Positions 1-15,431 of a stretch of 15,431 nt of DNA are shown piece by piece. Made by a program: the position numbers and the translations under genes. How positions within the stretch are numbered: the stretch's first letter is position 1; each line of letters begins with the position of its first letter. The notes beneath the pieces are model-generated. The model did no database searches. It was not told the DNA's origin and saw nothing but the letters and a program-made list of their open reading frames with translations. Source of the stretch: Burkholderiales bacterium (GTDB taxonomy: Bacteria > Pseudomonadota > Gammaproteobacteria > Burkholderiales > Burkholderiaceae_D); contig JACOUL010000008.1 of assembly GCA_016177875.1 (NCBI GenBank), positions 1 to 15,431 on the forward strand, written 5' to 3'.

Positions 1-132
1 ATTGAAATTCTGTGGAAGCAGGCCAAATATTTCTGGCGCCGCTTCTGTGCATTGGCCGGTCACGAATTGCAGCAGGAAGTCGACGCCTTGATGCAGGGTT
101 TTGGTACAGATTACACAATTGCTTTTCAATGA
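1..132 (+). CDS. 3' end of an unidentified CDS (last 43 codons, ...GHELQQEVDALMQGFGTDYTIAFQ*), truncated by the window edge
   Basis: Frame 1 is open from base 1 to a TGA at 130-132. It is convergent with the minus-strand protease gene, leaving a 4-bp gap. I do not recognise the product. Confidence 0.3.
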   Translation: MEILWKQAKYFWRRFCALAGHELQQEVDALMQGFGTDYTIAFQ

Positions 133-136
133 TTAC

Positions 137-772: not shown

Positions 773-1076
773 GGCGAGAGTCGTTATGTGCAAACAATGG
801 TTCCGGAACCAGCTCTTGGTGAATGCGCAGCAAGACATGGATTTCGTCCCATACTTCAGCGGGGAATCCTGCACGGTTACCGCGTTCGTCAAGAGTTAGC
901 TTGGTAAAGTACATGCCCAATTCGCGGAATCCCCACAGGGCCTGGATAGCCGAAAGAATGTGTGGAAACTGTGTTTCCAGCGCGGAGGGATATTGCTCTT
1001 GCGGAGGCGTTTCCTTTCCAGGCGCGCCGGTGCCGGAGGTTGCCGTGCTAGGTGCGGGGAAACGATAACGTGGCAT
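717..1076 (-). CDS. Hypothetical protein (119 aa) between yajQ and the protease gene
   Basis: ATG-initiated ORF 22 nt downstream of the yajQ stop on the same strand. It overlaps the protease start by 56 nt in another frame. The central segment (ILSAIQALWGFRELGMYFTKLTLDERGN...VWDEIHVLLRIHQEL) looks protein-like, but I do not recognise a family. The Shine-Dalgarno is weak. Confidence 0.4.
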   Translation of the reverse strand: MPRYRFPAPSTATSGTGAPGKETPPQEQYPSALETQFPHILSAIQALWGFRELGMYFTKLTLDERGNRAGFPAEVWDEIHVLLRIHQELVPEPLFAHNDSRHALDFSRLDSKSATTKLG

Positions 1077-1098
1077 GATGCATTCTCGGTAAATCAGG

Positions 1099-1584
1099 CT
1101 AATCGCGGAAATTGGTAAAGTCCAAAGGCAGCTCCGTCACATCCTTGCGCAGCAAGGCAATGGCCGCTTGCAAGTCATCGCGTTTGGCGCCGTTCACACG
1201 AATCGCGTCGCCTTGAATGCTGGCTTGAACCTTCATTTTGCTGTCTTTTATGAGGCGGACAATTTTCTTGGCTAATTCGACTTCAATACCATTCTTGATC
1301 TTGATGCCTTGCTTGACCTTGTCGCCGCCGATTTTTTCAATCTTCCCTAAGTCCATGAAGCGCACGTCGACATTGCGCTTAGTGAGTTTGGCCGTCAAAA
1401 CCTCGCGAACCTGATTCAGCTGAAATTCTGAGTCGGCGAATGCAGTCAACTCACGCTCTTTTTGTTCAATACGGGCATCACTTCCCTTGAAGTCAAAGCG
1501 CGTAGAAATTTCCTTGTTGGCCTGATCGACAGCATTCTTGACTTCAACCAGATTGGCCTCGGATACGACATCAAACGATGGCAT
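1099..1584 (-). CDS. yajQ: YajQ family (UPF0234) nucleotide/c-di-GMP-binding protein
   Basis: 161 aa. The N-terminus [40 protein letters not shown] is the characteristic YajQ signature, and the length is typical. Confidence 0.9.
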
Positions 1585-1598
1585 TGCTAGTCCCCTTA

Positions 1599-1619
1599 GG
1601 TGGACAAAACGTGTCCACC
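1599..1619. promoter_or_regulatory. 21-bp perfect palindrome GGTGGACA-aaacg-TGTCCACC in the yajQ/murB divergent intergenic region
   Basis: Read directly: 1599-1606 is the reverse complement of 1612-1619. It lies 15 nt upstream of the yajQ ATG. It is either an operator for a dimeric regulator or a 5'-UTR hairpin. Confidence 0.3.
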
Positions 1620-1688
1620 AGCCTCAATTGTTTTGTGTAAACGGCAATTCTATCGGACTATAAGCCGAGTGGCTATAATTTGCCAGCC

Positions 1689-2717
1689 ATGCCAGACGAT
1701 TTTCTCATCCATTCTGATTTTTCGCTACGCCAACTGAATACTTTTGGCATTGATGCGAAAGCCCATCGCTATGTGTCTATAGATTCGGTCAATACGCTGC
1801 TGAAAGTCGTCAAAACGACTGAATTTGCGCAATCGGAACGATTTGTTCTGGGCGGGGGAAGCAATATTCTTTTGACTGACGACTTCCCCGGGCTTGTATT
1901 GCACATAGGCATTAAGCAGATTGGGCTGATTGGAGACGATGAGGACACTACCTTCGTGCGCGCCGCTGCAGGAGAAAATTGGCATCAATTTGTCCAGTGG
2001 ACTTTAGCGCATGATTTGTCCGGCTTAGAAAACCTTTCCTTGATTCCGGGTAGCGTCGGTGCTGCACCCATTCAGAATATCGGTGCATACGGTGCGGAAG
2101 TAAAAGACTTTCTGCATAGCGTGACCGTTTTTGATTTGCTTAGCGGAGACATTCGCACCCTTAGTAATGCCGAATGCGGATTCGGCTATCGCGATAGTAT
2201 TTTCAAACGCGAGCTGAAAGGAAGGGCCGTAATTCTCGACGTGACGTTCGCCTTGCCTAAACGCTGGCAGCCCAACTTGCACTATGTGGAATTGGCGCAA
2301 GAGATGAAGGCGCGCGGATTGAATATGCCGACCGCAAGAGAAGTCAGCGATGCCGTCATTGCCATTCGTACTCGCAAGCTTCCCGACCCTGCCATCATCG
2401 GCAATGCCGGCAGCTTTTTTAAGAATCCTATCGTGTCGGCGGTCAAGCGTGAACAGTTGCTTGCGCAATTTCCCCAATTGGTCAGCCACCGTCAGGCTGA
2501 CGGCAGCTATAAATTGGCGGCCGGTTGGCTCATCGATCAGTGCGGCTGGAAAGGCAAGAGCATGGGCGCTGCCGGCGTATATGAGCGTCAGGCTCTGGTC
2601 TTAGTGAATCGAGGCGGCGCAAGCGGTAAAGAAATCGTCGATTTGGCGTGCGCTATCCAGAAGAGTGTGCTCGCGCGTTTCGACGTTTTGTTGGAAGCCG
2701 AGCCGATTATTCTTTAG
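1689..2717 (+). CDS. murB: UDP-N-acetylenolpyruvoylglucosamine reductase
   Basis: 342 aa from the ATG at 1689. The tracked 1680 start is a TTG. It has the FAD-binding MurB N-terminal region (LNTFGIDAKA...LGGGSNILL) and a MurB C-terminal domain. A TATAAT at 1674-1679 sits only about 10 nt before the ATG. Confidence 0.9.
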   Translation: MPDDFLIHSDFSLRQLNTFGIDAKAHRYVSIDSVNTLLKVVKTTEFAQSERFVLGGGSNILLTDDFPGLVLHIGIKQIGLIGDDEDTTFVRAAAGENWHQFVQWTLAHDLSGLENLSLIPGSVGAAPIQNIGAYGAEVKDFLHSVTVFDLLSGDIRTLSNAECGFGYRDSIFKRELKGRAVILDVTFALPKRWQPNLHYVELAQEMKARGLNMPTAREVSDAVIAIRTRKLPDPAIIGNAGSFFKNPIVSAVKREQLLAQFPQLVSHRQADGSYKLAAGWLIDQCGWKGKSMGAAGVYERQALVLVNRGGASGKEIVDLACAIQKSVLARFDVLLEAEPIIL

Positions 2718-2985
2718 AACTCATTTCATCAATACGAGGGCACGCGAAAGTGGTCTGGACGGATGCGGCGCTAGGCGTCATCGCGACGCAAAGGCTGATG
2801 CCTTTGCTAGCGGTGCAACAATGCGATGCGCCGCCCAGACCACTTTCCCGGAGGGTTCGCACCAGAATCGACGCTGGACAGCGTTGGGCTCCTTGCGAAT
2901 ATGCAACGGCTATTCGACGCGTCGCCCGCCTTGCCAGCCCCGATTCTGGAGCGAACGCGAGCCCTCCTATTGATGAAATGAGTTC
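2717..2985. repeat. 269-bp palindromic, highly structured element with perfect 18-bp terminal inverted repeats (MITE-like or structured-RNA leader)
   Basis: GAACTCATTTCATCAATA at 2717-2734 is the exact reverse complement of 2968-2985. The closing stem extends to about 30 bp with 2 mismatches. Inside are nested perfect stems: 2746-2758/2835-2847 (13 bp); 2765-2771/2828-2834; 2779-2784/2823-2828; the GCAAAGGC-UGAU-GCCUUUGC hairpin at 2788-2807; 2864-2872/2941-2949 (9 bp); the hairpins at 2873-2886 and 2899-2917; and a CGACGCGTCG palindrome. It has no coding capacity beyond symmetric shadow ORFs. Confidence 0.6.
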
Positions 2986-3064
2986 TGGTTGCACCACGTC
3001 CAGACATATCGAATCCATTTTGGTGCGAAATCTGGTTTTGCACTAAGGACGGGCATTTCACTTT

Positions 3065-3093
3065 TTACTTATTTTTATTAAAAATCATATAGT
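3065..3093 (+). promoter_or_regulatory. Candidate sigma70-type promoter for the amidase/ABC operon (-35 TTACTT, 17-bp spacer, -10 TATAGT)
   Basis: An AT-rich block at 3050-3125 precedes the operon. TATAGT lies at 3088-3093 and TTACTT at 3065-3070. This is inferred by eye only. Confidence 0.25.
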
Positions 3094-3129
3094 TAAGTAA
3101 AAATTCCAGCGGGCATGATATTCGCTTAA

Positions 3130-3166
3130 CTTGAACACATTCTTGTATTCAAGATCGTATTCAAGG
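3130..3166. promoter_or_regulatory. Candidate operator: three copies of an 8-9 bp half-site overlapping the Shine-Dalgarno/start of the first operon gene
   Basis: CTTGAACA at 3130-3137 is inverted relative to TATTCAAG at 3146-3153 (8-bp arms, 8-bp spacer). A direct repeat GTATTCAAG occurs at 3145-3153 and 3158-3166. The array ends 8 nt before the ATG at 3174. The only regulator in the operon is the GntR/FCD protein encoded at its end. Confidence 0.3.
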
Positions 3167-3173
3167 CGAATTC

Positions 3174-5030
3174 ATGGACGCAATTCCTTCCGTATTAACT
3201 ATTTCTGCTGTGCAAGGCAGCTATTTGAGCGGTAAATATTCGCCGGTCGAATTGCTGGCCAAAGTTTTCGAACGTATCAAGCACGAAAGTCCGGCGGAAA
3301 TTTGGATTGGCCATGCCGATCGTGCGAGTGCGTTGGCGCGTGCCAAGGAATTAGGATTGACGCTTGCCGCGGAAGGCGCCGCTGCGTTTAAGCGCTTTCC
3401 TCTACTCGGTATTCCGTTCGCGGTTAAAGACAATATCGATGTGGCAGGATTGCCCACCTCTGCAGCTTGTCCTGCGTTTGCTTATACGCCGAGTCGCTCG
3501 GCGGAAGCGGTTGATCGTCTGCAAAAAGCAGGGGCGATCGTCGTCGGCAAGACGAATCTCGATCAATTCGCCACCGGTTTAGTAGGCACGCGATCACCTT
3601 ATGGTGCAGTAAAAAATCCATTTAATGCCGACTATATTTCCGGTGGGTCGAGTTCCGGTTCAGCGGCAGCGGTTGCGCATGGCTTTGTCGCATTTTCATT
3701 AGGCACCGATACGGCGGGGTCGGGGCGCGTACCTGCAGGATTTTGCAACTTAGTCGGCATCAAGCCGACGCCAGGTTTGGTCAGTACCCGCGGCGTGGTG
3801 CCGGCTTGCCGCAGCCTGGACTGCATTTCGGTATTTGCGCACGGCGTAGAGGAGGGCTGGCGCGTATTGAGCGCAATGGTGGGGAAAGATCAAGAAGATC
3901 CGTATTCCTATTCGCCTCGCATGCTGCCGCCGCTTGTAAAAAAAGTGCGTATCGGTATTCCGGCGCAACCGGAATTTTTTGGAGATGACGAGGCTCGGAA
4001 GTTGTATGAACACGCAGTGGGCGTGTTGGAGGCTCTGCCTCAAGTGTCAATCGTCCCGTTTGATTTCTCGCCGCTGCACGAAGTCGCACAACTACTGTAT
4101 GACGGCCCTTGGGTGGCTGAACGGCGGGCTGCTTTGGGAACATTTTTTGAGACCAGCTGCACCGATATGGATGCGACGGTGCGTGAAGTGATTCGCCGCG
4201 CCGATGGACAAACCGCAGTTGACGCTTTCAATGGCATTTATCGTCTAGAAGCAGGCAAACGCTTGGCAGAGTCCTTGTTCGCGCAATTCGACATGCTGAC
4301 GGTGCCGACCGCGCCCACGCATTTCAGCATTGCGCAAATTGCAGAACAACCGGTGGCGCGCAACGCACAGCTCGGCCTCTACACCAATTTTGTCAATCTG
4401 CTCGGTATGTGCGCGCTGGCGCTTCCGACAGGTTTTCGCAGCGATGGATTGCCGGCCGGCGTCACGCTGATCGGCCCCGGTGGTGCGGATTATCGGCTTG
4501 CGGAATTTGCACGTGCACTTGAGCCCCTGCTGCACAAGCGCCTCGGCCGAAGTGAACAAGAGCCGCCGCGCAGCGGCAGTCTGACAGCATTGCCCGAAGA
4601 TGAGGCAACGATCGACGTCGCGGTCGTAGGTGCTCACCTGTCCGGTCAATCGCTGAATTGGCAATTGATCGAGCGTGGCGCGCGGCTGGTGCGCAGCGGG
4701 CGCACGGCGAGCCGTTATCGTTTGTACGCATTGCCCGGTACTACGCCGCCCAAACCGGGGTTGATCCGTAGCGACGACGGCGCCGCCGGATGCGCAATCG
4801 AAATCGAAGTATGGCAGATGCCGGTGCGTCAATACGGCAGCTTCGTTGCAGAAATTCCATCTCCCTTGGGCATCGGCAGTCTCGAGTTGGAAGATGGCAG
4901 CAGTGTGCAGGGCTTTCTGTGCGAGGCCTGGGCACTCAAGGATGCACAGGATATTTCCGCTTACGGCGGCTGGCGCGCATTCCGTGCCGACGCCGCCTTT
5001 TCAACTTCACTCAAGAAGGAGCTTTCATGA
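3174..5030 (+). CDS. Amidase-signature family hydrolase with a C-terminal extension domain; allophanate hydrolase (AtzF/DUR1,2-type)-like
   Basis: 618 aa. It has the amidase signature: the Lys in FAVKDNIDVAGLPT and the Gly/Ser-rich GGSSSGSAAAVA with the downstream GTDTAGSGR. An additional C-terminal domain of about 140 aa (VAVVGAHLSGQSLNWQLIERGA...) is typical of allophanate hydrolases rather than plain amidases. No urea carboxylase gene is adjacent. Confidence 0.75.
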   Translation: MDAIPSVLTISAVQGSYLSGKYSPVELLAKVFERIKHESPAEIWIGHADRASALARAKELGLTLAAEGAAAFKRFPLLGIPFAVKDNIDVAGLPTSAACPAFAYTPSRSAEAVDRLQKAGAIVVGKTNLDQFATGLVGTRSPYGAVKNPFNADYISGGSSSGSAAAVAHGFVAFSLGTDTAGSGRVPAGFCNLVGIKPTPGLVSTRGVVPACRSLDCISVFAHGVEEGWRVLSAMVGKDQEDPYSYSPRMLPPLVKKVRIGIPAQPEFFGDDEARKLYEHAVGVLEALPQVSIVPFDFSPLHEVAQLLYDGPWVAERRAALGTFFETSCTDMDATVREVIRRADGQTAVDAFNGIYRLEAGKRLAESLFAQFDMLTVPTAPTHFSIAQIAEQPVARNAQLGLYTNFVNLLGMCALALPTGFRSDGLPAGVTLIGPGGADYRLAEFARALEPLLHKRLGRSEQEPPRSGSLTALPEDEATIDVAVVGAHLSGQSLNWQLIERGARLVRSGRTASRYRLYALPGTTPPKPGLIRSDDGAAGCAIEIEVWQMPVRQYGSFVAEIPSPLGIGSLELEDGSSVQGFLCEAWALKDAQDISAYGGWRAFRADAAFSTSLKKELS

Positions 5031-6640
5031 TTAATTCGCTCTTCAAACGCGCGGCGCTTTGTTCGCTTTTCGGTGCATTGCTGGCAGTTTCCACGCTACC
5101 GGCAAGCGCACAGGATAAGCGCAAGGAGACGCTGATCGTCGCCAACGAAACCGGTCCCAACATGCTAGACGTGCAAGGCGTCGGCGCCAATCGCCCGGCA
5201 TACGCGGTGTCGTGGATGACTTACGACCGCTTAATGACCTTCGGCAAAAAGAAACTGGCCAACGGCATCGTCAGTTACGACTTTTCAAAGCTGGAACCTG
5301 AATTGGCGGAAAGCTGGGAATTCGCGAAGGATGGCATGTCGGTGACCTTCAAGCTGCGCAAAAATGCGAAGTTCCACGATGGCACGCCAGTGACTGCCAA
5401 GGATGTGAAATGGTCGTTCGAACGCGCACTGGCAATGGGCGGCTTTCCGACCTTCCAAATGAAAGCGGCGTCGATTGAAAAACCGGAACAGTTTGAAGTG
5501 GTCGACGCCAACACGTTCCGCGTCAAATTCCTGCGCAAGGATAAGATGACGATGCCGGATCTGGCGGTGCCGACGGCTTCCATTTACAACTCCGAGCTGG
5601 CTAAGAAAAACGCCACACCGGAAGATCCGTGGGCCGGCACTTGGCTGAAGAACAATACTGCAGGCGGCGGTGCATACAAGGTTGAGTCTTATAAGCCCGG
5701 CCAGGAAATCATTTACGTTCGCAACGACGATTGGAAGAGCGGTCCGCTGCCTAAGATCAAGCGCGTCATCCAGCGCGAAGTGCCGTCGGCGGGCAATCGC
5801 CGCGCATTGCTGACCAAAGGCGACATCGACATGAGCTATGACATGCCGCCGAAGGATTTCGCCGAGATGTCGCAAGAGAAGGGCAACGTCAAGGTTTCCA
5901 GCGTGCCGATTGAAAATTCGATGTTCTATCTCGGCATGAACGTGACCAAACCGCCGTTCGACAATATGAAGGTGCGCCAAGCGGTAGCCTATGCCGTGCC
6001 GTATGAGCGTCTCATGCAAAGTGCGGCGTATGGACGCGGCGTGCCTTTATTCGGCGCCAAAAATTCGGCGACCGGCGCCGAATGGCCGGCCGCCACCAAG
6101 TACACGACCGATCTTGCCAAGGCCAAGCAATTGATGAAAGAAGCCGGTTATGAAAACGGTTTCGAAACCACGTTATCGTTCGATCTCGGCCAGGGGACGG
6201 TGTCCGAACCGATCGCCATTCTGGTGCAGGAAGCGCTGGCGCAGTTGAACATCAAGAGCACCATCAATAAGGTGCCGGGTTCCAATTGGCGTGCCGCGAT
6301 GTTAAAGAAGGACATGCCGCTGATGATCAATCGTTTCGGCGGCTGGCTCAACTATCCGGAGTACTTCTTCTTCTGGACGTATCACGGCCAGAACGCGGTA
6401 TTCAACACCATGTCGTACAAGAATCCCGGCGTGGACAAGATGATCGATGCCGCTCGCTTCGAGACCGACAAGCTGTCGTATCAGAGTCAGGTGAAAACCT
6501 TCGTCAATATCGCCTACGAAGAAGTGCCGCGCGTGCCCTTGTTCCAGCCGATGGCCGACGTGGCGATGCAAAAGAATGTGCAAGGCTACACCTACTGGTT
6601 CCACTTGCAGCCCGACTATCGTCAGCTGTCCAAGAACTAA
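5027..6640 (+). CDS. ABC transporter periplasmic substrate-binding protein, family 5 (DppA/OppA/NikA-like)
   Basis: The start is reassigned to the ATG at 5027, with AAGGAG 6 nt upstream and an ATGA overlap with the amidase stop. The tracked 4790 start would lie inside the amidase gene. It has a signal peptide (MINSLFKRAALCSLFGALLAVSTLPASAQD) and a family-5 SBP size of 537 aa. Confidence 0.85.
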   Translation: MINSLFKRAALCSLFGALLAVSTLPASAQDKRKETLIVANETGPNMLDVQGVGANRPAYAVSWMTYDRLMTFGKKKLANGIVSYDFSKLEPELAESWEFAKDGMSVTFKLRKNAKFHDGTPVTAKDVKWSFERALAMGGFPTFQMKAASIEKPEQFEVVDANTFRVKFLRKDKMTMPDLAVPTASIYNSELAKKNATPEDPWAGTWLKNNTAGGGAYKVESYKPGQEIIYVRNDDWKSGPLPKIKRVIQREVPSAGNRRALLTKGDIDMSYDMPPKDFAEMSQEKGNVKVSSVPIENSMFYLGMNVTKPPFDNMKVRQAVAYAVPYERLMQSAAYGRGVPLFGAKNSATGAEWPAATKYTTDLAKAKQLMKEAGYENGFETTLSFDLGQGTVSEPIAILVQEALAQLNIKSTINKVPGSNWRAAMLKKDMPLMINRFGGWLNYPEYFFFWTYHGQNAVFNTMSYKNPGVDKMIDAARFETDKLSYQSQVKTFVNIAYEEVPRVPLFQPMADVAMQKNVQGYTYWFHLQPDYRQLSKN

Positions 6641-6652
6641 AGGAATGCGGCA

Positions 6653-7666
6653 ATGTTGACGACTATCCTCAAGCGGCTGTTGGGCGCGATCCCGAATATC
6701 ATCGGGGTGATCGTCGTCACCTTTCTTTTGACGCGTGCATTGCCCGGCGACCCGGCGGCATTTTTCGCCGGGCCGTCCGGCAGTGCGGAAGCAGTTGAGC
6801 AAATTCGTGAAAAGCTCGGGCTCAATCGCCCCTTGCCGGTGCAGTTCGGTTATTACGTACGCGACTTGGCGAAGGGCGATTGGGGTGTTTCGCTTTCCAC
6901 CGGCCAGCCGGTGCTGAGGGAACTTGCCACGCGCCTGCCGGCATCGCTTGAGTTAACGCTGGTTGGGCTCTTGCTCTCGGTAGTGATTGCGATCCCGCTC
7001 GGCGTGCTTGCGGCAACGCGTCCCGGCTCTTGGATAGACCACGCTTGCCGTGCCATCGCAACAGCCGGCGTTTCGCTGCCGACCTTCTTCACAGGTTTGT
7101 TGCTGGCCTACGTGTTTTACTTTTTGCTCGGTTGGGCACCGGCGCCGCTAGGGCGGCTCGACGCCTATCTGTCGGCGCCTCCAAGCGTGACGGGTTTTTA
7201 TTTGATCGATAGTTTGATCGCCCGCGACCTGGAAGTGTTTTGGGCCGCGCTACGTCAGCTGGCATTGCCGGCGATTACCCTCGGGCTGTTTGTTCTTGCG
7301 CCGCTCGCGCGTATGACACGCGCCGCCATGCTGGGCGTATTATCGGCGGATTTCATCCGCACTGCGCGGGCAAGCGGATTGTCTTCCCGCACCGTTATTT
7401 TTACCTATGCTTTTCGCAACGCCGTGCTGCCGGTGATGACGACGCTCGGCATGGTGTTTTCCTTTCTGCTCGGTTCCAACGTGCTGGTGGAGAAAGTATT
7501 CGCCTGGCCCGGTATCGGGTCGTTTGCCATTGAGGCGCTGGTGTCGTCCGACTACGCGCCGGTACAAGGTTTCGTGCTGGCCATGGCTCTTTTGTATGTG
7601 TTGCTGAACCTGACCATTGATATCGCTTATGGACTCATCGATCCCCGTGTCCGCGTTGAAGGCTGA
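6653..7666 (+). CDS. ABC transporter permease (DppB/OppB-like)
   Basis: 337 aa. The N-terminal LLGAIPNIIGVIVVTFLLTRALPGDP motif and multiple TM segments match a binding-protein-dependent permease. AAGGA lies 8 nt upstream of the ATG. Confidence 0.9.
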   Translation: MLTTILKRLLGAIPNIIGVIVVTFLLTRALPGDPAAFFAGPSGSAEAVEQIREKLGLNRPLPVQFGYYVRDLAKGDWGVSLSTGQPVLRELATRLPASLELTLVGLLLSVVIAIPLGVLAATRPGSWIDHACRAIATAGVSLPTFFTGLLLAYVFYFLLGWAPAPLGRLDAYLSAPPSVTGFYLIDSLIARDLEVFWAALRQLALPAITLGLFVLAPLARMTRAAMLGVLSADFIRTARASGLSSRTVIFTYAFRNAVLPVMTTLGMVFSFLLGSNVLVEKVFAWPGIGSFAIEALVSSDYAPVQGFVLAMALLYVLLNLTIDIAYGLIDPRVRVEG

Positions 7667-8525
7667 GCAGCCGTCGGCCTGGGCCAAACGCTGGAAGACG
7701 CTACGCTACGTGGTGGCGGAAAATCCGCTATCGCTGGTGGCGGCCGGCTTGTTTGCCGTATTCGTACTATTGGGATTGACCGGTGGCATGCTTGCACCTT
7801 TCGATCCGCTGGCCAGCAACGTCGGCCAGCCATTGTCTGCGCCCTCGTTTAAGCATTGGTTCGGTACCGATGCGCTTGGACGCGACATTCTCTCGCGGGT
7901 GCTGGTAGCGACGCGCCTGGATCTCGGCATCGCGGTTGCCGCCGTCAGCTTGTCGTGCGTGCTGGGCGGCTTGCTTGGCGCATTTGCGGGCTATTTCGGC
8001 GGCTGGACCGAGCGCCTGGTGGGCCGCTTATCGGACACCATCATGGCTTTCCCCTTGTTTGTACTCGCGATGGGGATTGTCGCGGCGATGGGCAATACCG
8101 TCGCCAACATTGTGCTGGCAACGGCGATCATCAATTTGCCGTTCTATATCCGCGTGGCGCGTGCCGAGAGCAGCGTACTCAAGAACGCCGGCTTCGTCGA
8201 AGCGGCGCGCCTGGCAGGCAACGGAGAGGTGCGGCTTCTATTTCATCATATTATTCCTAACATCCTGCCGCCGATGACGGTGCAAGTGTCGCTCAATATG
8301 GGGTGGGCAATTTTGAATGCCGCCGGTCTTTCATTCATCGGTTTGGGCGTGCGCCCGCCGGACGCAGAGTGGGGCATCATGGTGGCGGAAGGCGCGCAAT
8401 ACATCGTCTCCGGAGAATGGTGGATCGCATTGTTTCCGGGGGCGGTGCTGATGCTGGCAGTGTTCTGTTTTAATCTGCTCGGTGATTCGCTGCGTGATCT
8501 GGTCGATCCTCGGAGGCGCACATGA
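7629..8525 (+). CDS. ABC transporter permease (DppC/OppC-like)
   Basis: The tracked 7617 start is a TTG. The first ATG is at 7629 and overlaps the upstream permease end by 38 nt. The N-terminal cytoplasmic segment is followed by a TM (LSLVAAGLFAVFVLLGL) and a permease EAA-like region. The exact start is uncertain. Confidence 0.8.
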   Translation: MDSSIPVSALKAEQPSAWAKRWKTLRYVVAENPLSLVAAGLFAVFVLLGLTGGMLAPFDPLASNVGQPLSAPSFKHWFGTDALGRDILSRVLVATRLDLGIAVAAVSLSCVLGGLLGAFAGYFGGWTERLVGRLSDTIMAFPLFVLAMGIVAAMGNTVANIVLATAIINLPFYIRVARAESSVLKNAGFVEAARLAGNGEVRLLFHHIIPNILPPMTVQVSLNMGWAILNAAGLSFIGLGVRPPDAEWGIMVAEGAQYIVSGEWWIALFPGAVLMLAVFCFNLLGDSLRDLVDPRRRT

Positions 8526-9532
8526 GCACAGCTTCAACATCTTTGTTGGAAGTCGACAATCTCTCGTTGGAGTTTCGTACGCGCAGCGGCATCGTGCGCG
8601 CTCTTGAAAACGTCAGTTTGGAGTTGCCGGCCGGCGGATCCTTGGGTTTGGTCGGCGAAAGCGGTTCGGGCAAATCGGTGCTGTCCTTCGCTGTGCTCGG
8701 CATCCAAGATGCCGCAGCACGTGTCACCAACGGCACGATTCGCTTCGCGGGCCAGGACTTATTAGCCAACGATGGCGCCGCAATGAAAGCTTTGCGCGGG
8801 CGCGAATTGGCAATGATTTTCCAGAACCCGCGCGTGGCCTTGAATCCGATCCGCCAAGTCGGCAAGCAAATCGAAGATGTGCTTGCCCGCCACACGGATT
8901 TGCGCGGCAAGGCGCTTCGAGCGCGTGCCATCGAATGCCTGGCGGAAGTGCGTATTCCCGATCCGGAGCGCCGTTACATTGCGTATCCTTTCGAGCTGTC
9001 GGGCGGCATGTGCCAGCGCGTGATGATTGCGATCGCGCTTGCTTGCCGCCCGCGCTTGTTGATCGCCGACGAGCCCACGACCGGATTGGATGTCACTACC
9101 CAGGCTGCCATCATGCGCTTGATCCGCGATCTCGGTCATGAGAAAGGGATGGCAACCTTGTTGATCACGCATGACCTCGGCCTTGCACGCGAGTTTTGCG
9201 ATCGGATCGCCGTAATGCATGCCGGTCATATTGTCGAGACGGCGCCGACCGAAGACTTGTTCCTGGCGTCGGCGCATCCCTACACGGCGCAATTGATACG
9301 CGCGACGCCGGTCGGACAGGATAAGCTGGAAAATTTGGCGGCGATTCCCGGCAATTTGCCCGACTTGCGCCGCACCGATTTGCCGGCGTGCCGATTTTCC
9401 GAGCGTTGCGCGCGTCGGCAAGAACAATGCGGTCGGCCGCTTGTCTTGCGTGACCTCGCGGCGCAGCACCGCATCGCATGTCATTATCCTTTGTTGGAAA
9501 ATAAGGAGGCCTTCGATGCACCTGCTGCTTGA
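8522..9532 (+). CDS. ABC transporter ATP-binding protein (DppD/OppD-like) with a C-terminal 4-Cys oligopeptide-ABC domain
   Basis: Walker [12 protein letters not shown], the signature LSGGMCQR and Walker [13 protein letters not shown] are all present. ATGA overlap with the upstream stop, with GGAGG upstream. The C-terminus reads ...[16 protein letters not shown]...IACHYP. Confidence 0.9.
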
Positions 9533-10499
9533 GGCATTGGACTTGGTCAAGCACTTCCCGGTGAAAGTGCATCGCAAGCAAAAGCATTTGCATGCGGTCG
9601 ACGGCCTTAATTTCAAAATCGAGGCGGGCGAAACCGTGGGTTTGGTCGGCGAGTCCGGTTGCGGCAAATCGACCTTGGTGCGGCTGTTGACGCGAACGCT
9701 CGATCCCAGCGACGGCCAAGTGCGCTTCCACGGCAACAGCATCGGTTTGATTCCCGCGCGATCGATGGCGACGCATCCTTTGCGGCGCGAAATCCAGATG
9801 GTGTTTCAGGACCCGACCGATAGTCTGAATCCGCGCTATACGGCGCGTCAGACCATCGCCGAGTCGGTACGCCTTCTCAGCGAATTCCACAATGCCGAAA
9901 AAATCGATGCCGAAGTCGTGCGTGCCGCCGACATGGTCGGCTTGCCGCAGGAGTTGCTCGATCGTTATCCGCATCAATTGTCGGGCGGCCAGAAGGCGCG
10001 CGTCGGCATCGCGCGCGCGATCGTCACACGGCCGCGCTTGTTGATTCTGGATGAACCGACAGCGGCGCTGGATGTATCGGTGCAGGCAGTCATTTTGCAA
10101 TTGCTCGATCGCCTTAAAAAAGAACTCGGCATGAGTTTTCTTTTTGTTTCGCATGACTTGAATGTGGTGCGTTTATTGTGTGACCGCGTGATGGTGATGT
10201 ATCTCGGCCAAATCGTGGAAAGCGGCCCAGCGCAGGAAGTCTTTCATCGGCCTGCCCATCCCTACACCCGCGCATTGATTGCATCGCTGCCGGGCGGACT
10301 CACGCAAGGGGAGGCAAGCGACGCTGATTTGCTGGTTGGAGGCGATCCGCAAAGTCCGATCGATCCCGATCCACAGCGTTGCCGCTTGCTCGGCCGCTGC
10401 CCGCGCGGAGCCGAATTATGCGGAAAACAGTCCCCCGTTTTACAATCCATCGCTGCAGGTCGCGATGTCGCGTGCCACTTCCCGTCAATTCAAGGATGA
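9516..10499 (+). CDS. ABC transporter ATP-binding protein (DppF/OppF-like) with a C-terminal 4-Cys domain
   Basis: The start is reassigned to the ATG at 9516 ([14 protein letters not shown]) with AAGGAGG 7 nt upstream. Walker A GLVGESGCGKST, LSGGQKAR and LLILDEPTAALD are present. The C-terminus reads CRLLGRCPRGAELC...VACHFP. Confidence 0.9.
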   Translation: MHLLLEALDLVKHFPVKVHRKQKHLHAVDGLNFKIEAGETVGLVGESGCGKSTLVRLLTRTLDPSDGQVRFHGNSIGLIPARSMATHPLRREIQMVFQDPTDSLNPRYTARQTIAESVRLLSEFHNAEKIDAEVVRAADMVGLPQELLDRYPHQLSGGQKARVGIARAIVTRPRLLILDEPTAALDVSVQAVILQLLDRLKKELGMSFLFVSHDLNVVRLLCDRVMVMYLGQIVESGPAQEVFHRPAHPYTRALIASLPGGLTQGEASDADLLVGGDPQSPIDPDPQRCRLLGRCPRGAELCGKQSPVLQSIAAGRDVACHFPSIQG

Positions 10500-11197
10500 A
10501 TACCGTTTCCTCCAAGGCCAATATGCTGGCCGAACATCTTTACAGCCGTCTTAAAGATGACATTTTCAACTTTCGGCTTCTTGCCGGCGAACGCTTTACC
10601 GAAAGCGAAATGGCGCAACGTTATGGCGTCTCACGCACACCTTTGCGGGACGCACTGTATCGCCTGGAACGTGAAGGCTATTTAACCGTGGCATTTCGCA
10701 GCGGCTGGAGCGTGAGACCTTTTGACTTCGAACGTTTTGAGCAGCTCTACGACTTACGCGTGATTCTTGAGCAGGCCGCAGTGCACGCCATTTGCGATGC
10801 CGAACATCCGGTGGATTTGTCCGAACTGCAAGCCATATGGCTGGTTTCGCCGGAAGAGCGCTTGACCGATGGCGCGCAAGTGTCCATGCTCGATGAAGCC
10901 TTTCATCAAGCCTTGGTACAAGCGACCGGCAATGCCGAGATGGCGCGCGTCCATGCCGAAGTCACCGAAAAAATTCGCATCATCCGGCGTCTGGACTTTA
11001 CCAAGGAAGACCGCATTGCCGCGACGTATGAAGAGCATGGACGAATCTTGCGCAAGTTGATGGAACGTAAGGAGATCCAGGCAGGAATGCTATTGAAATC
11101 GCATATCGAAAGCAGCAAGGCCGAAGTGCGAAAAATCACCCTGCACATGTTGTATGCAGCGCGCCAGCGCCTTGGCGGCGCCGACGCGGCGGCATGA
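10496..11197 (+). CDS. GntR family transcriptional regulator, FadR/FCD subfamily
   Basis: The start is reassigned to the ATG at 10496 (MNTVSS...), which shares an ATGA overlap with the ATPase stop and has AAGGA upstream. The GntR-type N-terminal winged-HTH region includes ...ESEMAQRYGVSRTPLRDALYRLEREGYL, with a helical FCD-like C-terminal domain. It is the last gene of the operon. Confidence 0.85.
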   Translation: MNTVSSKANMLAEHLYSRLKDDIFNFRLLAGERFTESEMAQRYGVSRTPLRDALYRLEREGYLTVAFRSGWSVRPFDFERFEQLYDLRVILEQAAVHAICDAEHPVDLSELQAIWLVSPEERLTDGAQVSMLDEAFHQALVQATGNAEMARVHAEVTEKIRIIRRLDFTKEDRIAATYEEHGRILRKLMERKEIQAGMLLKSHIESSKAEVRKITLHMLYAARQRLGGADAAA

Positions 11198-11216
11198 TTA
11201 CGTGAAGGATGATGAC

Positions 11217-11492
11217 TTAGAACTCTTGGTCATCGCTTAGGGGTTCGCTGCCGGCAAGATAACGCAATTCGGCTGCCTGACTGGGCATGAGTTCATCGAA
11301 GTGGGTAGCCAGCGCATTGATCTCTTCAATGCCTTCTACCCTGTCGACATCGGCCGGATGCGTTGACTCGAACTCGTCAAGGTCTTGGGCCAACAGAGCA
11401 GCCAAGAATCCTTTCGTCGCCCGAGCCAAATTTTGGCCATAAGACGGGCCGTGGCTGATATACGGATAAGTAGCAAGATTCGATCGGAACAT
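11217..11492 (-). CDS. Hypothetical small acidic protein (about 91 aa)
   Basis: ORF 11217..11504. I prefer the second ATG at 11492, which has GGAGG 5 nt upstream (atGGAGGtttttATG). It is acidic with a C-terminal DDQEF tail. I do not recognise a family. Confidence 0.45.
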   Translation of the reverse strand: MFRSNLATYPYISHGPSYGQNLARATKGFLAALLAQDLDEFESTHPADVDRVEGIEEINALATHFDELMPSQAAELRYLAGSEPLSDDQEF

Positions 11493-11771
11493 AAAAACCT
11501 CCATCTGTGTTTGCGCACTTGTGTACGCAATTTCAGTATGAAGGCAATTTGTTATAAATCCAATTTGAAGTTGTTATAGTAGGCATTCACAAAACGAATA
11601 ACAAAAGATGGCCATTTACGCGTCATATTGAAAGTCAAATCTGCAGAGCACCGCTAAACTGTTGTTTTTAAGATGCTTTGTCTTCCCATTTCTGCGCAAT
11701 ATCATGCTTTCTCTAAGGTATCTTGATTAGAATGATCCTAGGCAACATCATTTTGTCCCAAGGAGATCATC

Positions 11772-11912
11772 ATGGGCCGATTAATTCAAAGCAAGATTCC
11801 TTTAGGCCGGCGTAATACGCTGTTCAACATCCGCCGCACCCAAAGTGGTGTATACGTGGGTGCGGCTGTCACGATTGCCCTTGTCCTGGGCGTGATTAAA
11901 GTAATCGGCTAG
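11772..11912 (+). CDS. Unannotated 46-aa small protein with a basic N-terminus and one C-terminal TM helix (MGRLIQSKIPLGRRNTLFNIRRTQSGVYVGAAVTIALVLGVIKVIG)
   Basis: It is below the ORF-track length cut-off. There is a strong AAGGAG 7 nt upstream of the ATG. A single hydrophobic helix lies at the C-terminus. The surrounding region is AT-rich. Confidence 0.4.
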   Translation: MGRLIQSKIPLGRRNTLFNIRRTQSGVYVGAAVTIALVLGVIKVIG

Positions 11913-11938
11913 AACTTCAGACAGGCTTTTAAGTCTGT

Positions 11939-12169
11939 TTAACACCGGCAGCCAAAAATCATGCGGCGCTTGCGTGCGGCTTCATTATCTTCGTAGATCG
12001 CTTCTTCACATTCTTTACTACAGAACCTGCGAAAGCCGCTTAGCGCTTTGTTGCAGTACCAGCAATGCGTGTGCGCCTGCGCGACCGCTCTTCTTGAGCC
12101 GGTTTCATTTAGCGGGGAAAAGAGATGAGGGTTTGCTTTTGTCGAACTGTTCGGTCTGAAATGTTCCAT
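11939..12169 (-). CDS. Small zinc-ribbon protein (about 76 aa) with a C-x2-C...F-C-S-K-x-C motif (YacG-like C4 arrangement)
   Basis: The tracked start at 12181 is a TTG. The ATG at 12169 has GGAG 6 nt upstream. The protein contains HCWYCNKALSGFRRFCSKECEE and a C-terminal GCRC. Confidence 0.45.
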   Translation of the reverse strand: MEHFRPNSSTKANPHLFSPLNETGSRRAVAQAHTHCWYCNKALSGFRRFCSKECEEAIYEDNEAARKRRMIFGCRC

Positions 12170-12495
12170 TGTCGTCTCCAAGAATTATTGTTAGGCAGTT
12201 GCAGGCTCAGCAACTGATTTACATAGGTTAATTCTTCGTAGGGGAACGGTGCTGAGCTATATCAAAGCTATCGTTAGCCGGCTTGCCGCCGGCGTTCAGG
12301 ATGGAGCAAAACTCGCAAGGCAACATGTAAATCCACATCGTGCCTGTTTAAGAATTCCGCTGCAATGCGCGTGCCGCGCGCATCCTTTAGCAAAATCGCG
12401 ATTTCAACCACACACAATCGCACTACGTCGCGGCGGGAGGAGACCAAGTCAAACGGCGGTCTTGCGGTGTTGGCGTAATGAGCCCCAGCTTCCAT

Positions 12496-14151
12496 CTACC
12501 AATACGACCACTGCTGAGTGCTCAATACATAAATTGCCAGCAAGCCATTGGTTACCATATGCGCTATAACGGCATCCCATACTTTGCCTCGAATAAAACG
12601 CGCAACGCCAAAAGCAAGCCCCGCCAGTGCTCCTGCTAGCCAGGCGCTGTGCAAAGCGCCAAAGGCCACAGAAGAAATTATCAGGGGCAACCAAGCCTTA
12701 TGAAATTTTTCTGTGCCGGAGGTTGCCTCGTTTTTTGACAGAACATTGATCAGATAGCCGCGAAAAGCCAGTTCTTCCGCGAGAGGAACGATTAAGGTAG
12801 CGCCAAGCGCACGAATTGCCAGCCATCCTGCGATCAGCAATGGGGAATTATTTTTTAAGTCGGTGGCGAATGCTTCGGTCGTCTCTCCGGACGCCGGCAC
12901 GATACTAATCCACAATAAAAATACGGCAATGCCGATCATCACGGGCGCAACAGCTACCGTCAAACTACCCAAGTTAAAACGCTTCCAGAAAACCCCCAGG
13001 GTTAGGCCGGCAACCGCTATACGCACTGGATAGAGCCAATCAAAGCTTGCAGTAAAGGCTAGGGTGATAAGCGTTGCACATAACAACACCAATTCCGGCA
13101 GCAGCAATACATTGAGCGAATCGATCTCCAGCATCGCGCCGCCTGACTTTCCGCTGAAAAATGGAATGCGTCGCGCCACCAAAATCATGCCGATTGAAAC
13201 GCACAAAAAATAAATCCATCCGGCATGGGAGTGGAATCCTTGAATGGCGATTTCAGGCGAAATAGCGTGCCCGATGCCGACCAGCGAAGCGATGCGAATG
13301 CAGTTGAATATCCACATGAGCAACAGGGCGGCAGGGTAAAGCAACAGGGCATTGGGATATTTCAAATCCTGTCGAAAGGTCAGCGAATACCAGGCAAGAA
13401 ACGCCGTAATCATCGCCATGCCTTCGTAGCCGGAACAGGTAGACGATATCAATACGATGAAATTGCCAATGCCGAGCTCCTTCGTCACCGCATTGGCGAC
13501 GACATCGGCATGAAAAAGCTCAAGAAAAAAACGGGCGACGGCGATCGTCGGTGTGCTGAGAAAATCGTCCCAAGTATTTTGGAAAATCCCATTGATGAAA
13601 TAAATGACGAGGGTAACGCCTAAGGCAAGGAGAAGAGGTATCTTTTCGGATGCGGCAAATTGTCTCCACCATGTTAACGGCGCAATCATGAATAAAGTCG
13701 CGCCGGCTGTCGCGGCCAAGGCAAGCAACAGGGCACCGCTCCAAAATGCTTCGCGATCCGGCGTCGCAAGAGGAAAATGCAATAAGTCATTGGGTAAAAC
13801 GGCGCCGATCACCAGGAGCAATGCAAAAAAGCACAGCAGTTGCGCAGTTAGGTAGCGCATGGCAGGGCGCGTTGCGTGCACTTCAGATAGGGAATGCCAA
13901 ATGTTATTTAGCCGGGCGGTTAGCGCCAATGCAAGCGCAACGCAGAAATAGATAAGATATTGCATGCTGGCGCCTAAATGCGGCGCGTACGCGAGAGAGC
14001 CGTCGTATTGCGCCGAGCGCGGATGTACGAAGAGTGCGACAAACGACGCTTGCATGAGGATAAGCAAAGCGAATAGCGGTAAGCGCAGCTGGAAGTGCCA
14101 TGGCGTCCAGTGCTGCAGCGGTGTGCCGACTTGGCCGTTTTGAGTAGTCAT
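12496..14151 (-). CDS. Exosortase fused to a CPBP (CAAX/Abi-type) intramembrane protease domain; XrtE-like (VPEID-CTERM system) fusion
   Basis: A polytopic N-terminal domain of about 330 aa has the exosortase-type motifs ...STCSGYEGMAM... (Cys) and ...IFNCIRIASL... (Asn-x-x-Arg). The C-terminal domain has all three CPBP motifs: EELAFR, FGALH and HMVTN. The tracked start at 14166 is a GTG inside a hairpin, so I prefer the ATG at 14151. Confidence 0.8.
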   Translation of the reverse strand: MTTQNGQVGTPLQHWTPWHFQLRLPLFALLILMQASFVALFVHPRSAQYDGSLAYAPHLGASMQYLIYFCVALALALTARLNNIWHSLSEVHATRPAMRYLTAQLLCFFALLLVIGAVLPNDLLHFPLATPDREAFWSGALLLALAATAGATLFMIAPLTWWRQFAASEKIPLLLALGVTLVIYFINGIFQNTWDDFLSTPTIAVARFFLELFHADVVANAVTKELGIGNFIVLISSTCSGYEGMAMITAFLAWYSLTFRQDLKYPNALLLYPAALLLMWIFNCIRIASLVGIGHAISPEIAIQGFHSHAGWIYFLCVSIGMILVARRIPFFSGKSGGAMLEIDSLNVLLLPELVLLCATLITLAFTASFDWLYPVRIAVAGLTLGVFWKRFNLGSLTVAVAPVMIGIAVFLLWISIVPASGETTEAFATDLKNNSPLLIAGWLAIRALGATLIVPLAEELAFRGYLINVLSKNEATSGTEKFHKAWLPLIISSVAFGALHSAWLAGALAGLAFGVARFIRGKVWDAVIAHMVTNGLLAIYVLSTQQWSYW

Positions 14152-14163
14152 CGTTGTGGCAAG

Positions 14164-14200
14164 CACAAAAAACAGGGAAGTTCCTTCCCTGTTTTTTGTG
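14164..14200 (-). terminator. Perfect 17-bp-stem hairpin with an internal U6 tract (bidirectional intrinsic-terminator-like) between the precursor gene and the exosortase gene
   Basis: CACAAAAAACAGGGAAG-ttc-CTTCCCTGTTTTTTGTG. The inner GC-rich 8-bp stem CAGGGAAG/CUUCCCUG is followed by UUUUUUGUG in either orientation. It lies 15 nt after the precursor stop and ends 12 nt before the exosortase ATG. Confidence 0.55.
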
Positions 14201-14215
14201 CAAAGCGCGGAAGCC

Positions 14216-14398
14216 TTAAGCTTTCTTTTTCATAAAGGCCAGAACCCCGCCGAGAATGGCGATGCCCAGGATGGCCACACCGCCGTCAATCTCGGGCGCG
14301 AACCAACGGCCATGGCCATGGAAGTGGAAGTGAGGGTGTGTTGCCAAAGCAAGGGTAGGGCTGAATGCCGCTGCGGAAATCAACATCTTTTTCAGCAT
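14216..14398 (-). CDS. 60-aa precursor: Sec signal peptide + His-rich HPHFHFHGHG motif + PEID-TM-KKK C-terminal sorting signal (VPEID-CTERM-like exosortase substrate)
   Basis: MLKKMLISAAAFSPTLALA | THPHFHFHGHGRWF | APEIDGG | VAILGIAILGGVLAF | MKKKA. AAGGAG lies 6 nt upstream of the ATG. It sits immediately upstream of the exosortase-CPBP gene on the same strand. Confidence 0.65.
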   Translation of the reverse strand: MLKKMLISAAAFSPTLALATHPHFHFHGHGRWFAPEIDGGVAILGIAILGGVLAFMKKKA

Positions 14399-14579
14399 AT
14401 GAATCTCCTTAAAAGTTGAGAACCGGAAGCTGAATTAACACAGCTGGTTCAACGGAACATTCTCGGGAGATGATCCGTTACAACTTTGAGACCCATCAAG
14501 AATAAGAAGATTGAGAGCCGATTTTTTTGTAACAGCGAATAAAGCTTTGCGTAGTGAAATGCTTTTGGCGAAATAATTT

Positions 14580-15374
14580 TTAAACCGCAACAGGCGCCTT
14601 GATCGCGGGATGCGATTCATATCCTACTATTTCGAAATCCTCGAAGCGATAGTCGAAAAGTGAATCGGGCTTGCGCTTGATTTGAAGCATCGGCAAACGC
14701 AGCGGGGTGCGGGATAGCTGTTCCTGTACTTGTTCCATATGATTGGAATAGAGATGACAATCGCCGCCTGTCCAAATAAATTCCCCGACTTGTAGATTCG
14801 CTTGCTGCGCCATCATATGCGTCAACAAGGCATAGGACGCAATATTGAACGGCACGCCCAGGAATATGTCGGCGCTTCGTTGATACAGTTGGCATGACAG
14901 TTTGCCGTCGGCGACATAGAACTGGAAAAAGGCGTGGCAAGGCGGCAGTTTCATACGCGGAATGTCGGCGACATTCCATGCAGAGACAATCAAACGGCGC
15001 GAGTCGGGATTGTTTTTAATTTGCTCCAGTACCTGCGCGATTTGGTCGATGTGTTCGCCGCTAGGTGCCGGCCACGAACGCCACTGATATCCATAAATCG
15101 GGCCGAGATTGCCTTGTTCGTCCGCCCATTCGTCCCAGATCGATACGCCGTTGTCCTTCAGGTATTTGATGTTGGTCGATCCGGCGAGGAACCACAGCAA
15201 TTCATGGATAATCGATTTGAGATGCAGCTTTTTGGTTGTAACCATGGGAAAGCCTTCACCCAAGTCAAACCGCATTTGATAACCGAATACGGAACGCGTG
15301 CCGGTACCGGTACGATCGGTCTTGAACGTGCCATTTTGCTGAACATGGCGCATGAAGTCGAGATATTGGCGCAT
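14580..15374 (-). CDS. thyA: Thymidylate synthase
   Basis: 264 aa. It begins [38 protein letters not shown] and contains ...[42 protein letters not shown]... These are classic ThyA motifs. Confidence 0.95.
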
Positions 15375-15431
15375 GAATGAGAATCCTATGGTCCGAAGCT
15401 AATCCAGCCGCTATTTTACTGTGAGCGCTTT

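Follow-up and report, generated by a model that had tools for sequence, protein, structure and literature searches.

A tiny His-rich precursor beside an exosortase E/CPBP protease fusion: a likely dedicated enzyme–substrate pair in a Burkholderiales genome

What does an exosortase act on when the gene beside it encodes only 60 amino acids (aa)? This question is raised by a stretch of 15,431 nucleotides (nt), hereafter the window, taken from a Burkholderiales bacterium (assembly GCA_016177875.1, contig JACOUL010000008.1, positions 1 to 15,431). Here, the gene for a tiny His-rich peptide, HYS18_01700, lies directly upstream of a gene for an exosortase fused to a CPBP intramembrane protease (Table 1). 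An initial annotation, made from the letters of the DNA, had proposed that the two form an exosortase module with a minimal cargo. Our analysis indicates that the locus is likely a dedicated enzyme–substrate pair of the exosortase E (XrtE)/VPEID-CTERM system, chromosomally stable in this Burkholderiales lineage, and that the 60-aa peptide is probably the substrate of XrtE, and its only one.

The large protein (MBI1889339.1) is already named 'exosortase E/protease, VPEID-CTERM system [Burkholderiales bacterium]' in GenBank. The NCBIfam model TIGR04162 matches it at 235.7 bits, against a curated cutoff of 150, and the match covers model positions 44-514 of 516. Pfam finds Exosortase_EpsH in its N-terminal part and an Rce1-like domain in its C-terminal part, where CPBP is fused; the C-terminal half also matches TIGR03008 (130.8 bits, cutoff 81), and the XrtA model TIGR03109 gives 22.4 bits, far below its cutoff of 208. 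These scores confirm the fusion of XrtE type that had been recognised by eye. On re-reading, both open reading frames (ORFs) and all the motifs named for them are present as claimed, with STCSGY, NCIR, EELAFR, FGALH and HMVTN in the large protein, and an alignment of 31 XrtE proteins leaves C239, N283, R286, H307, E459, E460, R464, F497, H501, H531 and N535 invariant. More than 400 homologues have the same two-domain layout, many of them already labelled XrtE. Judged by these comparisons the large protein is XrtE, with an invariant Cys/Arg/His set and an intact CPBP domain, and is predicted to act on a sorting signal.

Is the 60-codon frame a gene at all? The peptide it encodes has, by inspection, a signal peptide with an MLKK n-region, a 12-residue h-region and an A-L-A site, and a C-terminus with the tripartite layout of sorting signals, in which an xPEID motif abuts a transmembrane (TM) helix and a basic cluster stands at the extreme end. 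Homologous tiny ORFs lie beside XrtE in relatives whose XrtE is about 60% identical (L001, from a Paucimonas metagenome-assembled genome, L002 and L003/L004; such labels denote the loci that we compared), and directly upstream of it in L001, L002, L003, L086 and L087. A GGAG-containing site stands at the same place upstream of the homologues in L001, L002 and L003. The 25 tail codons compared between the window and L001 comprise 7 identical, 14 synonymous and 4 non-synonymous ones; between relatives the same 25 codons hold 11-14 synonymous versus 4-6 non-synonymous changes, which shows the tail to be under purifying selection. A near-identical copy of the peptide occurs in another sample, the sole difference being T20A. 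The initial call of a coding gene with a signal peptide, a His-rich core and a PEID tail has thus held, given its conservation in relatives together with the Shine-Dalgarno site, the mostly synonymous tail changes and the homologous tiny genes beside XrtE in both related and distant genomes. That the frame is there by chance, with the XrtE substrate encoded elsewhere, is extremely improbable: the curated models TIGR04161 and TIGR02595 leave it unmatched and the gene caller passed over the homologous ORF of L002 for the opposite strand, but at least 40 homologues conserve frame, Shine-Dalgarno site and protein sequence, tail substitutions are mostly synonymous and an independent tail profile matches. 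The profile match, the synonymous changes and the homologues effectively refute the chance reading; on this comparative basis, the 60-codon frame is a genuine coding gene under selection, with a predicted signal peptide, a 14-residue core and an APEID/TM/KKK tail.

The profile in question is a broad one that we built from 43 other, independent tails encoded next to XrtE. The window peptide scores 24.0 bits against it (E 6e-6) and is alone in matching among 304 six-frame segments of the window, the runner-up reaching 6.1. The protein P0124, 62% identical to the window peptide, has a precomputed match to the Pfam family PF27847 (VPEID-CTERM), and the upstream peptide of L003 has a 'faint' one. 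PEP_CTERM (TIGR02595) and Pfam returned nothing usable for the window peptide itself, whose motif is P-E-I-D and not P-E-P. A match to DUF6732 (E 0.099) is absent in the relatives, and we dismissed it as noise from the hydrophobic segment.

Finding the homologues depended on the query. A word-indexed search with the single peptide returned only itself, and an exhaustive phmmer search gave 12 matches at E <= 1e-3, several of them irrelevant long repeat proteins. A search with a profile of five peptides yielded about 40 more proteins of 52-76 aa with the same layout, among whose cores are GNGHAYGHSKH, EHANGNASFxRxH and HDWPHWANIHHHHHLHWQ. Databases probably lack annotations for many tiny XrtE substrates, and the poor recall of our first peptide query would follow from this; at positions 2649-3002 of L002, for example, the public gene call is a 117-aa ORF on the opposite strand and the 52-aa precursor is missed. 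Of the further homologues whose context was checked, those of L086 and L087 (Mariprofundus) lie directly upstream of XrtE and that of L085 does not. In L085 (4103-10213), a peptide of the window type, P0141, with the core QSSSAWANANNNASFKRVH, occurs without an adjacent XrtE; its neighbours include two PEP-CTERM proteins, a resolvase, an integrase and several other ORFs in the range of 63-76 aa, so that its context may be mobile.

How general is such a pair? Scanning a genome collection with a single XrtE protein gave one locus, and scanning metagenome contigs with an XrtE alignment gave 80; with others, 88 loci were examined in all. At least one ORF with a matching C-terminal tail was found in 69 of the 88. 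Almost all targets are tiny (for the most part 47-110 aa) and are usually encoded immediately upstream or downstream of XrtE on the same strand. We defined the core as the segment from the predicted signal-peptidase site to the xPE motif; across 72 non-redundant precursors its median length is 12 aa, and in 28 of them it measures 6 aa or less. These core lengths, and the composition of the cores (18.6% Gly, 12.1% His), make a minimal cargo the norm for XrtE and a His-rich core a recurrent theme. Hence the small cargo at our locus, first taken to be exceptional, follows the rule. At least three His residues occur in 18 of the 44 cores of 7 aa or more, and nine of these 18 are among the 23 cores of that length from clades independent of the window's own (L023, L024, L039, L042, L052, L054, L066, L067 and L079). 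At the other extreme stands the 50-aa precursor of L062, MKLLGMALMFVGVASFASAVSVPEIDPGS...RKK, which reads MKLLGMALMFVGVASFASA-VS-VPEIDPGS...RKK and has almost no core.

Members such as L062, in which nothing is left between the two hydrophobic segments, raise the possibility that the peptide is not cut at all. It would then sit in the membrane as a small bitopic or hairpin protein, with an uncleaved signal anchor and a C-terminal TM helix, and would interact with XrtE through its PEID loop, whether as partner, primer or regulator. In the window clade the N-terminal segment and the TM residues, which follow a small-xxx-small pattern, show unusual conservation, as such a role would have it. However, a canonical A-x-A signal-peptidase site is present in the window peptide, its tripartite tail resembles sorting signals with homologues that are cleaved experimentally (PGF-CTERM, GlyGly-CTERM), and every catalytic residue of XrtE is invariant. 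We consider an uncleaved partner very unlikely.

In contrast to the conserved signal peptide and tail, the core is hypervariable, with THPHFHFHGHGRWF in the window and APNSHANFHAFQHA, HSGHWC, QGRWC and FPHHHHHHFHFFRHA among its relatives. Two tandem hexanucleotide duplications, (CACTTC)2 and (CATGGC)2, lie within the window core, which suggests that slippage at short repeats makes the His-rich core grow. Its spacing is not kept: His residues are arranged as HxHxH in the window, HxxxHxxxH in L001 and P0125, and H6 in L003b. The alternating 'His-face beta-strand' of the initial annotation therefore does not survive comparison, His richness (12% of core residues) being what is retained. Two paralogous precursors flank a single XrtE in L003, at 939-1097 (+) and 3238-3426 (-), and L004 is arranged likewise; the core of the upstream one in L003 is QGRWC and that of the convergent downstream one is FPHHHHHHFHFFRHA, a natural His6. 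In several relatives a Cys stands right before APEID (RWC, HWC, QWC), which recalls Cys-dependent CPBP sorting signals; the window has Phe there.

Some loci carry precursors in tandem arrays: five copies in L068 (~2300-3280), four in L053 (~410-1300) and three each in L032 (~1370-2050) and L076 (~2250-3160). The copies are near-identical, about 53 aa long and essentially coreless, with the signal peptide followed by xPEID, the TM helix and the basic tail.

Precursor–terminator–enzyme layouts are typical of lanthipeptide operons, and such a layout is present here. Together with the hypervariable core between conserved flanks, the arrays of 3-5 precursor copies in L068, L053, L032 and L076 and the fact that CPBP proteins are often found beside bacteriocin genes, it invites a second alternative, a ribosomally synthesized and post-translationally modified peptide (RiPP) or bacteriocin-like product, in which a conserved leader and follower enclose the core, XrtE matures the precursor and the CPBP ('bacteriocin-processing') domain provides processing or self-immunity. 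This we regard as improbable, to much the same degree as an uncleaved partner. The window encodes no exporter, leader peptidase or known RiPP or other modification enzyme, and the recurrent XrtE neighbours include none either, so that the set expected of a RiPP cluster (precursor, modification enzymes, exporter and immunity gene) is incomplete at the locus. Moreover, many precursors would leave 2-6 residues after both cuts, too few for a bioactive peptide, and the locus is syntenic and flanked by housekeeping genes, not island-like.

The terminator-like element deserves attention of its own. It begins 14 nt past the stop codon of the peptide gene and folds at -31.1 kcal/mol (z = -5.6 against shuffles); a terminator scan had missed it, and folding later confirmed it. 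L002 has an equivalent hairpin, in which one G:C pair is replaced by a compensatory C:G pair. The XrtE ATG, 64 nt from the end of the peptide gene, lies 12 nt beyond the hairpin, with no obvious Shine-Dalgarno site. An alternative reading of the enzyme gene, 12496..14166 (-), encodes 556 aa from a GTG (14164-14166) inside the 3' arm of the hairpin; the 551-aa form from the ATG is the GenBank call. We infer attenuated readthrough, which would make the substrate abundant and the enzyme scarce. Searching the leader, the intergenic regions and the whole window against Rfam matched no family, hence no riboswitch. The intergenic region upstream of the peptide gene (14399-14579) is unconserved in the relatives except for the Shine-Dalgarno site.

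From these elements we propose the following mechanism. The peptide would be translated efficiently from its strong Shine-Dalgarno site, and most transcripts would stop at the hairpin, leaving substrate in excess over enzyme. The precursor would be exported by Sec and cut after ALA by signal peptidase I, while its C-terminal helix would hold it in the inner membrane, KKK facing the cytoplasm and APEID lying on the periplasmic side. The exosortase Cys would attack within or next to APEID and release the TM stub. The product of about 14-17 residues, THPHFHFHGHGRWF(APE), would then be set free or passed to a lipid or polysaccharide acceptor, a transfer that we propose because of the precedent of archaeosortase A and rhombosortase. 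A preprint by Haft summarises both the Cys/Arg/His triad of exosortases and archaeosortases and the cleavage, dependent on ArtA and on rhombosortase, that is coupled to lipid attachment. The fused CPBP domain might trim the product or clear the membrane stub, CPBP enzymes being glutamic intramembrane endopeptidases. Finally, and this is the weakest step, the His/aromatic-rich product could plausibly bind divalent metals, or the envelope, in a pH-dependent manner. Cleavage, transfer to an acceptor and metal binding are all suggested here by analogy.

The neighbourhoods of other XrtE genes bear on the question of an acceptor. The most recurrent neighbour is FA_hydroxylase, a membrane protein (PF04116, sterol-desaturase-like) encoded at nine loci (L007, L009, L010, L027, L032, L034, L064, L068 and L071) and directly downstream in most. 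In the clade of L023, L024, L026, L044 and L054, a UDP-glucose dehydrogenase (Ugd), a DAO-type oxidoreductase and a Wza-like Poly_export protein are encoded near XrtE. FA_hydroxylase and the Ugd/Wza-like proteins, the latter encoded around the canonical His-rich clade, would fit an envelope lipid or polysaccharide acceptor; this is a hint, and neither is found in the window.

Several results weigh against the view of the locus as an XrtE/VPEID-CTERM pair with the mechanism outlined above. The first is that TIGR04161, the curated VPEID-CTERM model (cutoff 33 bits), leaves the window peptide unmatched at E <= 10, and here the class assignment first suggested for the peptide found no confirmation. 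Its close relatives score weakly, 8.8-20.6 bits, and the model is narrow, in that among eight peptides encoded next to XrtE only the L024 type passes, at 56.7 bits. We would file the window peptide as a divergent VPEID-CTERM sub-type (APEIDGG...FMKKK) that lies outside the reach of the curated model; an entire APEIDGG/KKK sub-family, comprising at least 40 peptides, goes undetected by this model. Second, 19 of the 88 loci lack a tail match; in about 11 the flanks are truncated or an intact XrtE ORF is lacking, but at some 8 no adjacent target was found despite long flanks. Third, among the papers that we searched, none mentions VPEID-CTERM or exosortase E and none reports experimental work on XrtE. 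Fourth, the noncoding region of about 180 bp presumed to hold the promoter of the module does exist (181 nt, GC content 38.7%), but a consensus scan of it detected no sigma-70-like promoter. Fifth, with 28 of 72 cores at 6 residues or less, a His-rich cargo cannot be a general requirement for the function of the system. The last two concern metals: the window neighbourhood holds no metal-related gene, and in a crude scan with consensus sequences for Fur, Zur, NikR, RcnR and CueR, boxes occur at background level, equally upstream of His-rich and His-free precursors.

These last points also bear on the alternative in which metal is the very purpose of the module, a periplasmic or surface His-rich oligopeptide, candidate THPHFHFHGHGRWFAPE, serving to buffer, scavenge or resist Ni, Cu or Zn. 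Five His in the 14 residues of the window core, the His and Gly enrichment of the 72 precursors with its 18 cores of three or more His, the HGHGH or GGGGH repeats of independent clades (L024, L039, L042, L054, L067 and L079) and the example of ZepA, a PEP-CTERM protein with a His-rich end that handles zinc, all speak for it. Yet the genes of the window include no metal transporter, chaperone or regulator, and nor do the recurrent neighbours of XrtE, namely FA_hydroxylase, Ugd, the DAO oxidoreductase and Poly_export; the regulator matches are no better upstream of His-rich than of His-free precursors; close paralogues and orthologues have cores almost free of His (QGRWC, ANGQWC and AYGPWR); and many family members are coreless. 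A role in metal handling is possible but, in our judgement, rather unlikely, and we continue to favour the enzyme–substrate pair, whatever the fate of its product.

The surroundings of the pair agree with a chromosomal, stable locus. L002 shares with the window the gene order thyA–peptide–XrtE–small ORFs–murB–yajQ (identities in Table 1), and thyA also adjoins in L003. GC content is 0.516 for XrtE and 0.546 for the peptide gene, compared with 0.509 for thyA, 0.514 for murB and 0.516 for the aspartyl protease gene. Because of this synteny and of a GC content equal to that of the housekeeping neighbours, the horizontal acquisition of an AT-richer module proposed in the initial annotation is unsupported. 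HYS18_01690, the 73-aa hypothetical ORF that follows XrtE, may be co-transcribed with it, as a third operon gene specific to the clade; no Pfam family matches this ORF, which is absent from L001 and L003 and was found only in the sub-clade of the window and L002.

The segment that looks inserted or lost is instead the block 3174-11197 (GC content 0.575), which is absent from L002, where murB directly follows the small ORFs. It encodes an allophanate-hydrolase-like amidase, an SBP_bac_5 binding protein, two permeases, two oligopeptide-type ABC ATPases and a GntR/FCD regulator. Positions 11505-11938, which separate the 95-aa ORF from the DUF2116 ORF, form an AT-rich region of 434 nt (GC content 0.422) with no convincing ORF and no Rfam match, whose counterpart in L002 measures only ~120 nt. 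Beyond the thyA end of the window, in the same organism (L088, 430-3402), a set of ergothioneine-type genes is divergent from thyA, namely an EgtD-like Methyltransf_33 gene, an EgtB-like DinB_2+FGE-sulfatase gene and a GST gene. The proximity of a His-derived thiol pathway to a His-rich peptide is probably coincidental; L002 has ABC permeases at that position.

Table 1. Features of the window, with amino acid identity to the collinear locus L002 where available
Feature	Position	Strand	Identity to L002	Details
thyA			88%	
thyA–peptide intergenic region	14399..14579	(-)		181 nt, GC 0.387; presumed promoter region
Shine-Dalgarno site AAGGAG	14405..14410	(-)		6 nt 5' of peptide ATG
Precursor peptide gene	14216..14398	(-)	present	60 aa, MLKKMLISAAAFSPTLALATHPHFHFHGHGRWFAPEIDGGVAILGIAILGGVLAFMKKKA; GenBank HYS18_01700, 'hypothetical protein'
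Predicted Sec-type signal peptide	14342-14398	(-)		residues 1-19, MLKKMLISAAAFSPTLALA; A-L-A site
Core	14300-14341	(-)		residues 20-33, THPHFHFHGHGRWF; 14-residue His/aromatic, 5 His in 14
Tandem hexanucleotide duplications (CACTTC)2 + (CATGGC)2	14309..14332	(-)		encode HF-HF and HG-HG; read directly
Predicted sorting domain	14219-14299	(-)		residues 34-60; APEID, then hydrophobic helix GGVAILGIAILGGVLAFM, then KKKA
Intrinsic-terminator-like hairpin	14163..14201	(-)		18-bp perfect stem GCACAAAAAACAGGGAAG / CUUCCCUGUUUUUUGUGC, U-run
XrtE, exosortase E/CPBP protease fusion	12496..14151	(-)	~60%	551 aa from ATG at 14151; GenBank MBI1889339.1
Exosortase (EpsH) domain	13171..13956	(-)		predicted catalytic Cys239, codon 13435-13437; Asn283, Arg286, His307 invariant
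CPBP (Rce1-like, glutamic-type) intramembrane protease domain	12499..13068	(-)		EExxxR, FxxxH and HxxxN motifs
73-aa ORF HYS18_01690 (hypothetical)	12274..12495	(-)	77%	ATG abuts XrtE stop (TAG ATG)
DUF2116 ORF			71%	
95-aa ORF			67%	
murB			67%	
yajQ/DUF520			84%	
Aspartyl protease gene			74%	

The exosortase E/VPEID-CTERM system (TIGR04162, TIGR04161, PF27847) was reportedly defined bioinformatically by Haft and colleagues in 2012. The window locus resembles it in passing the curated XrtE model with an exosortase-CPBP fusion and in having a tiny secreted target, with xPEID, TM helix and basic tail, encoded next to the enzyme. The canonical L024 peptide, which passes TIGR04161, is likewise small and His-rich, with the core ERGGENRPHIEAHGDRHGHGHWHGHVK. 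In contrast, the window tail reads APEIDGG...LG.AILGG.LAFMKKK and ends in a Lys cluster, whereas seed-like members have ER..RRR, and the window clade sits between thyA and small unknown ORFs, whereas canonical members have neighbours of the exopolysaccharide (EPS) type.

With XrtA/PEP-CTERM, found in EPS loci, the system shares a homologous exosortase domain and the same tripartite logic of the sorting signal. However, XrtA serves many, mostly large cargos per genome, which carry a P-E-P motif, while here there is one tiny target with PEID; and the CPBP protein of TIGR03008, encoded separately there, is fused to the exosortase here. Fusions of this kind (EpsH-CAAX) were cited by Haft in 2006 as 'Rosetta stone' evidence for a functional link. 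In the archaeosortase A/PGF-CTERM and rhombosortase/GlyGly-CTERM systems, too, an intramembrane enzyme removes the C-terminal TM anchor of a Sec-exported protein, and there is experimental evidence in both for cleavage coupled to lipid attachment. They differ in taxa and motifs, in their large surface-protein substrates and in having no fused CPBP domain, and rhombosortase belongs to another enzyme family.

A closer parallel in organisation is JDVT-CTERM/MrtJ, described bioinformatically, in which a single target per genome is encoded in tandem with an intramembrane protease. Together with the EpsH-CAAX fusions noted in 2006, it speaks against the earlier statement that dedicated pairs of one cargo and one sortase are essentially uncharacterised. 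Beyond the tandem arrangement, conserved TM residues in the signal suggest recognition inside the membrane in both, and the CPBP domain of XrtE weakly matches MrtJ (32.7 bits). JDVT-CTERM differs in having an invariant Cys and no exosortase domain; a Cys before APEID occurs only in some relatives of the window. Finally, ZepA of Anabaena, a PEP-CTERM exoprotein that handles zinc, has a flexible His-rich segment implicated in zinc binding and is an exosortase-type substrate, as our peptide is likely to be. Unlike the peptide, it folds, is ~150 or more residues long, contains a structural Zn site, is regulated by Zur and lies in a zinc-gene neighbourhood; none of this is seen here.

What is new at this locus is small: the assignment of an unannotated peptide as a likely substrate, the APEIDGG/KKK sub-family that escapes the curated model, the attenuator hairpin and a quantitative picture of XrtE substrates as nearly cargo-less and enriched in His and Gly. 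For the single locus the result is a modest one, which corrects an annotation gap in that HYS18_01700, a 'hypothetical protein', is the likely XrtE substrate. Because its substrates are almost cargo-less, and the cores that do exist are strongly enriched in His and Gly, the XrtE family offers a compact two-gene model for the chemistry of exosortases (hydrolysis or transfer, and to which acceptor) and for the reason why a CPBP protease is coupled to it. A product of 14-17 residues would be ideal for defining the cleavage site and any attached moiety by mass spectrometry.

Since these substrates amount to little more than a signal peptide and a sorting signal, joined by a linker of 0-20 residues in which His and Gly are often abundant, it is tempting to speculate that XrtE does not sort proteins at all, but makes ultrashort peptides, or conjugates of peptides with lipids or polysaccharides, with the CPBP domain performing an obligatory second cut. 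We hold this to be unlikely, somewhat more so than a role in metal handling. If true, the product of the window clade would be a natural 'His-tag' tethered to the envelope for metal capture or, alternatively, a peptide primer or anchor for an envelope polymer, and the XrtE family would yield a new class of ribosomally made envelope molecule.

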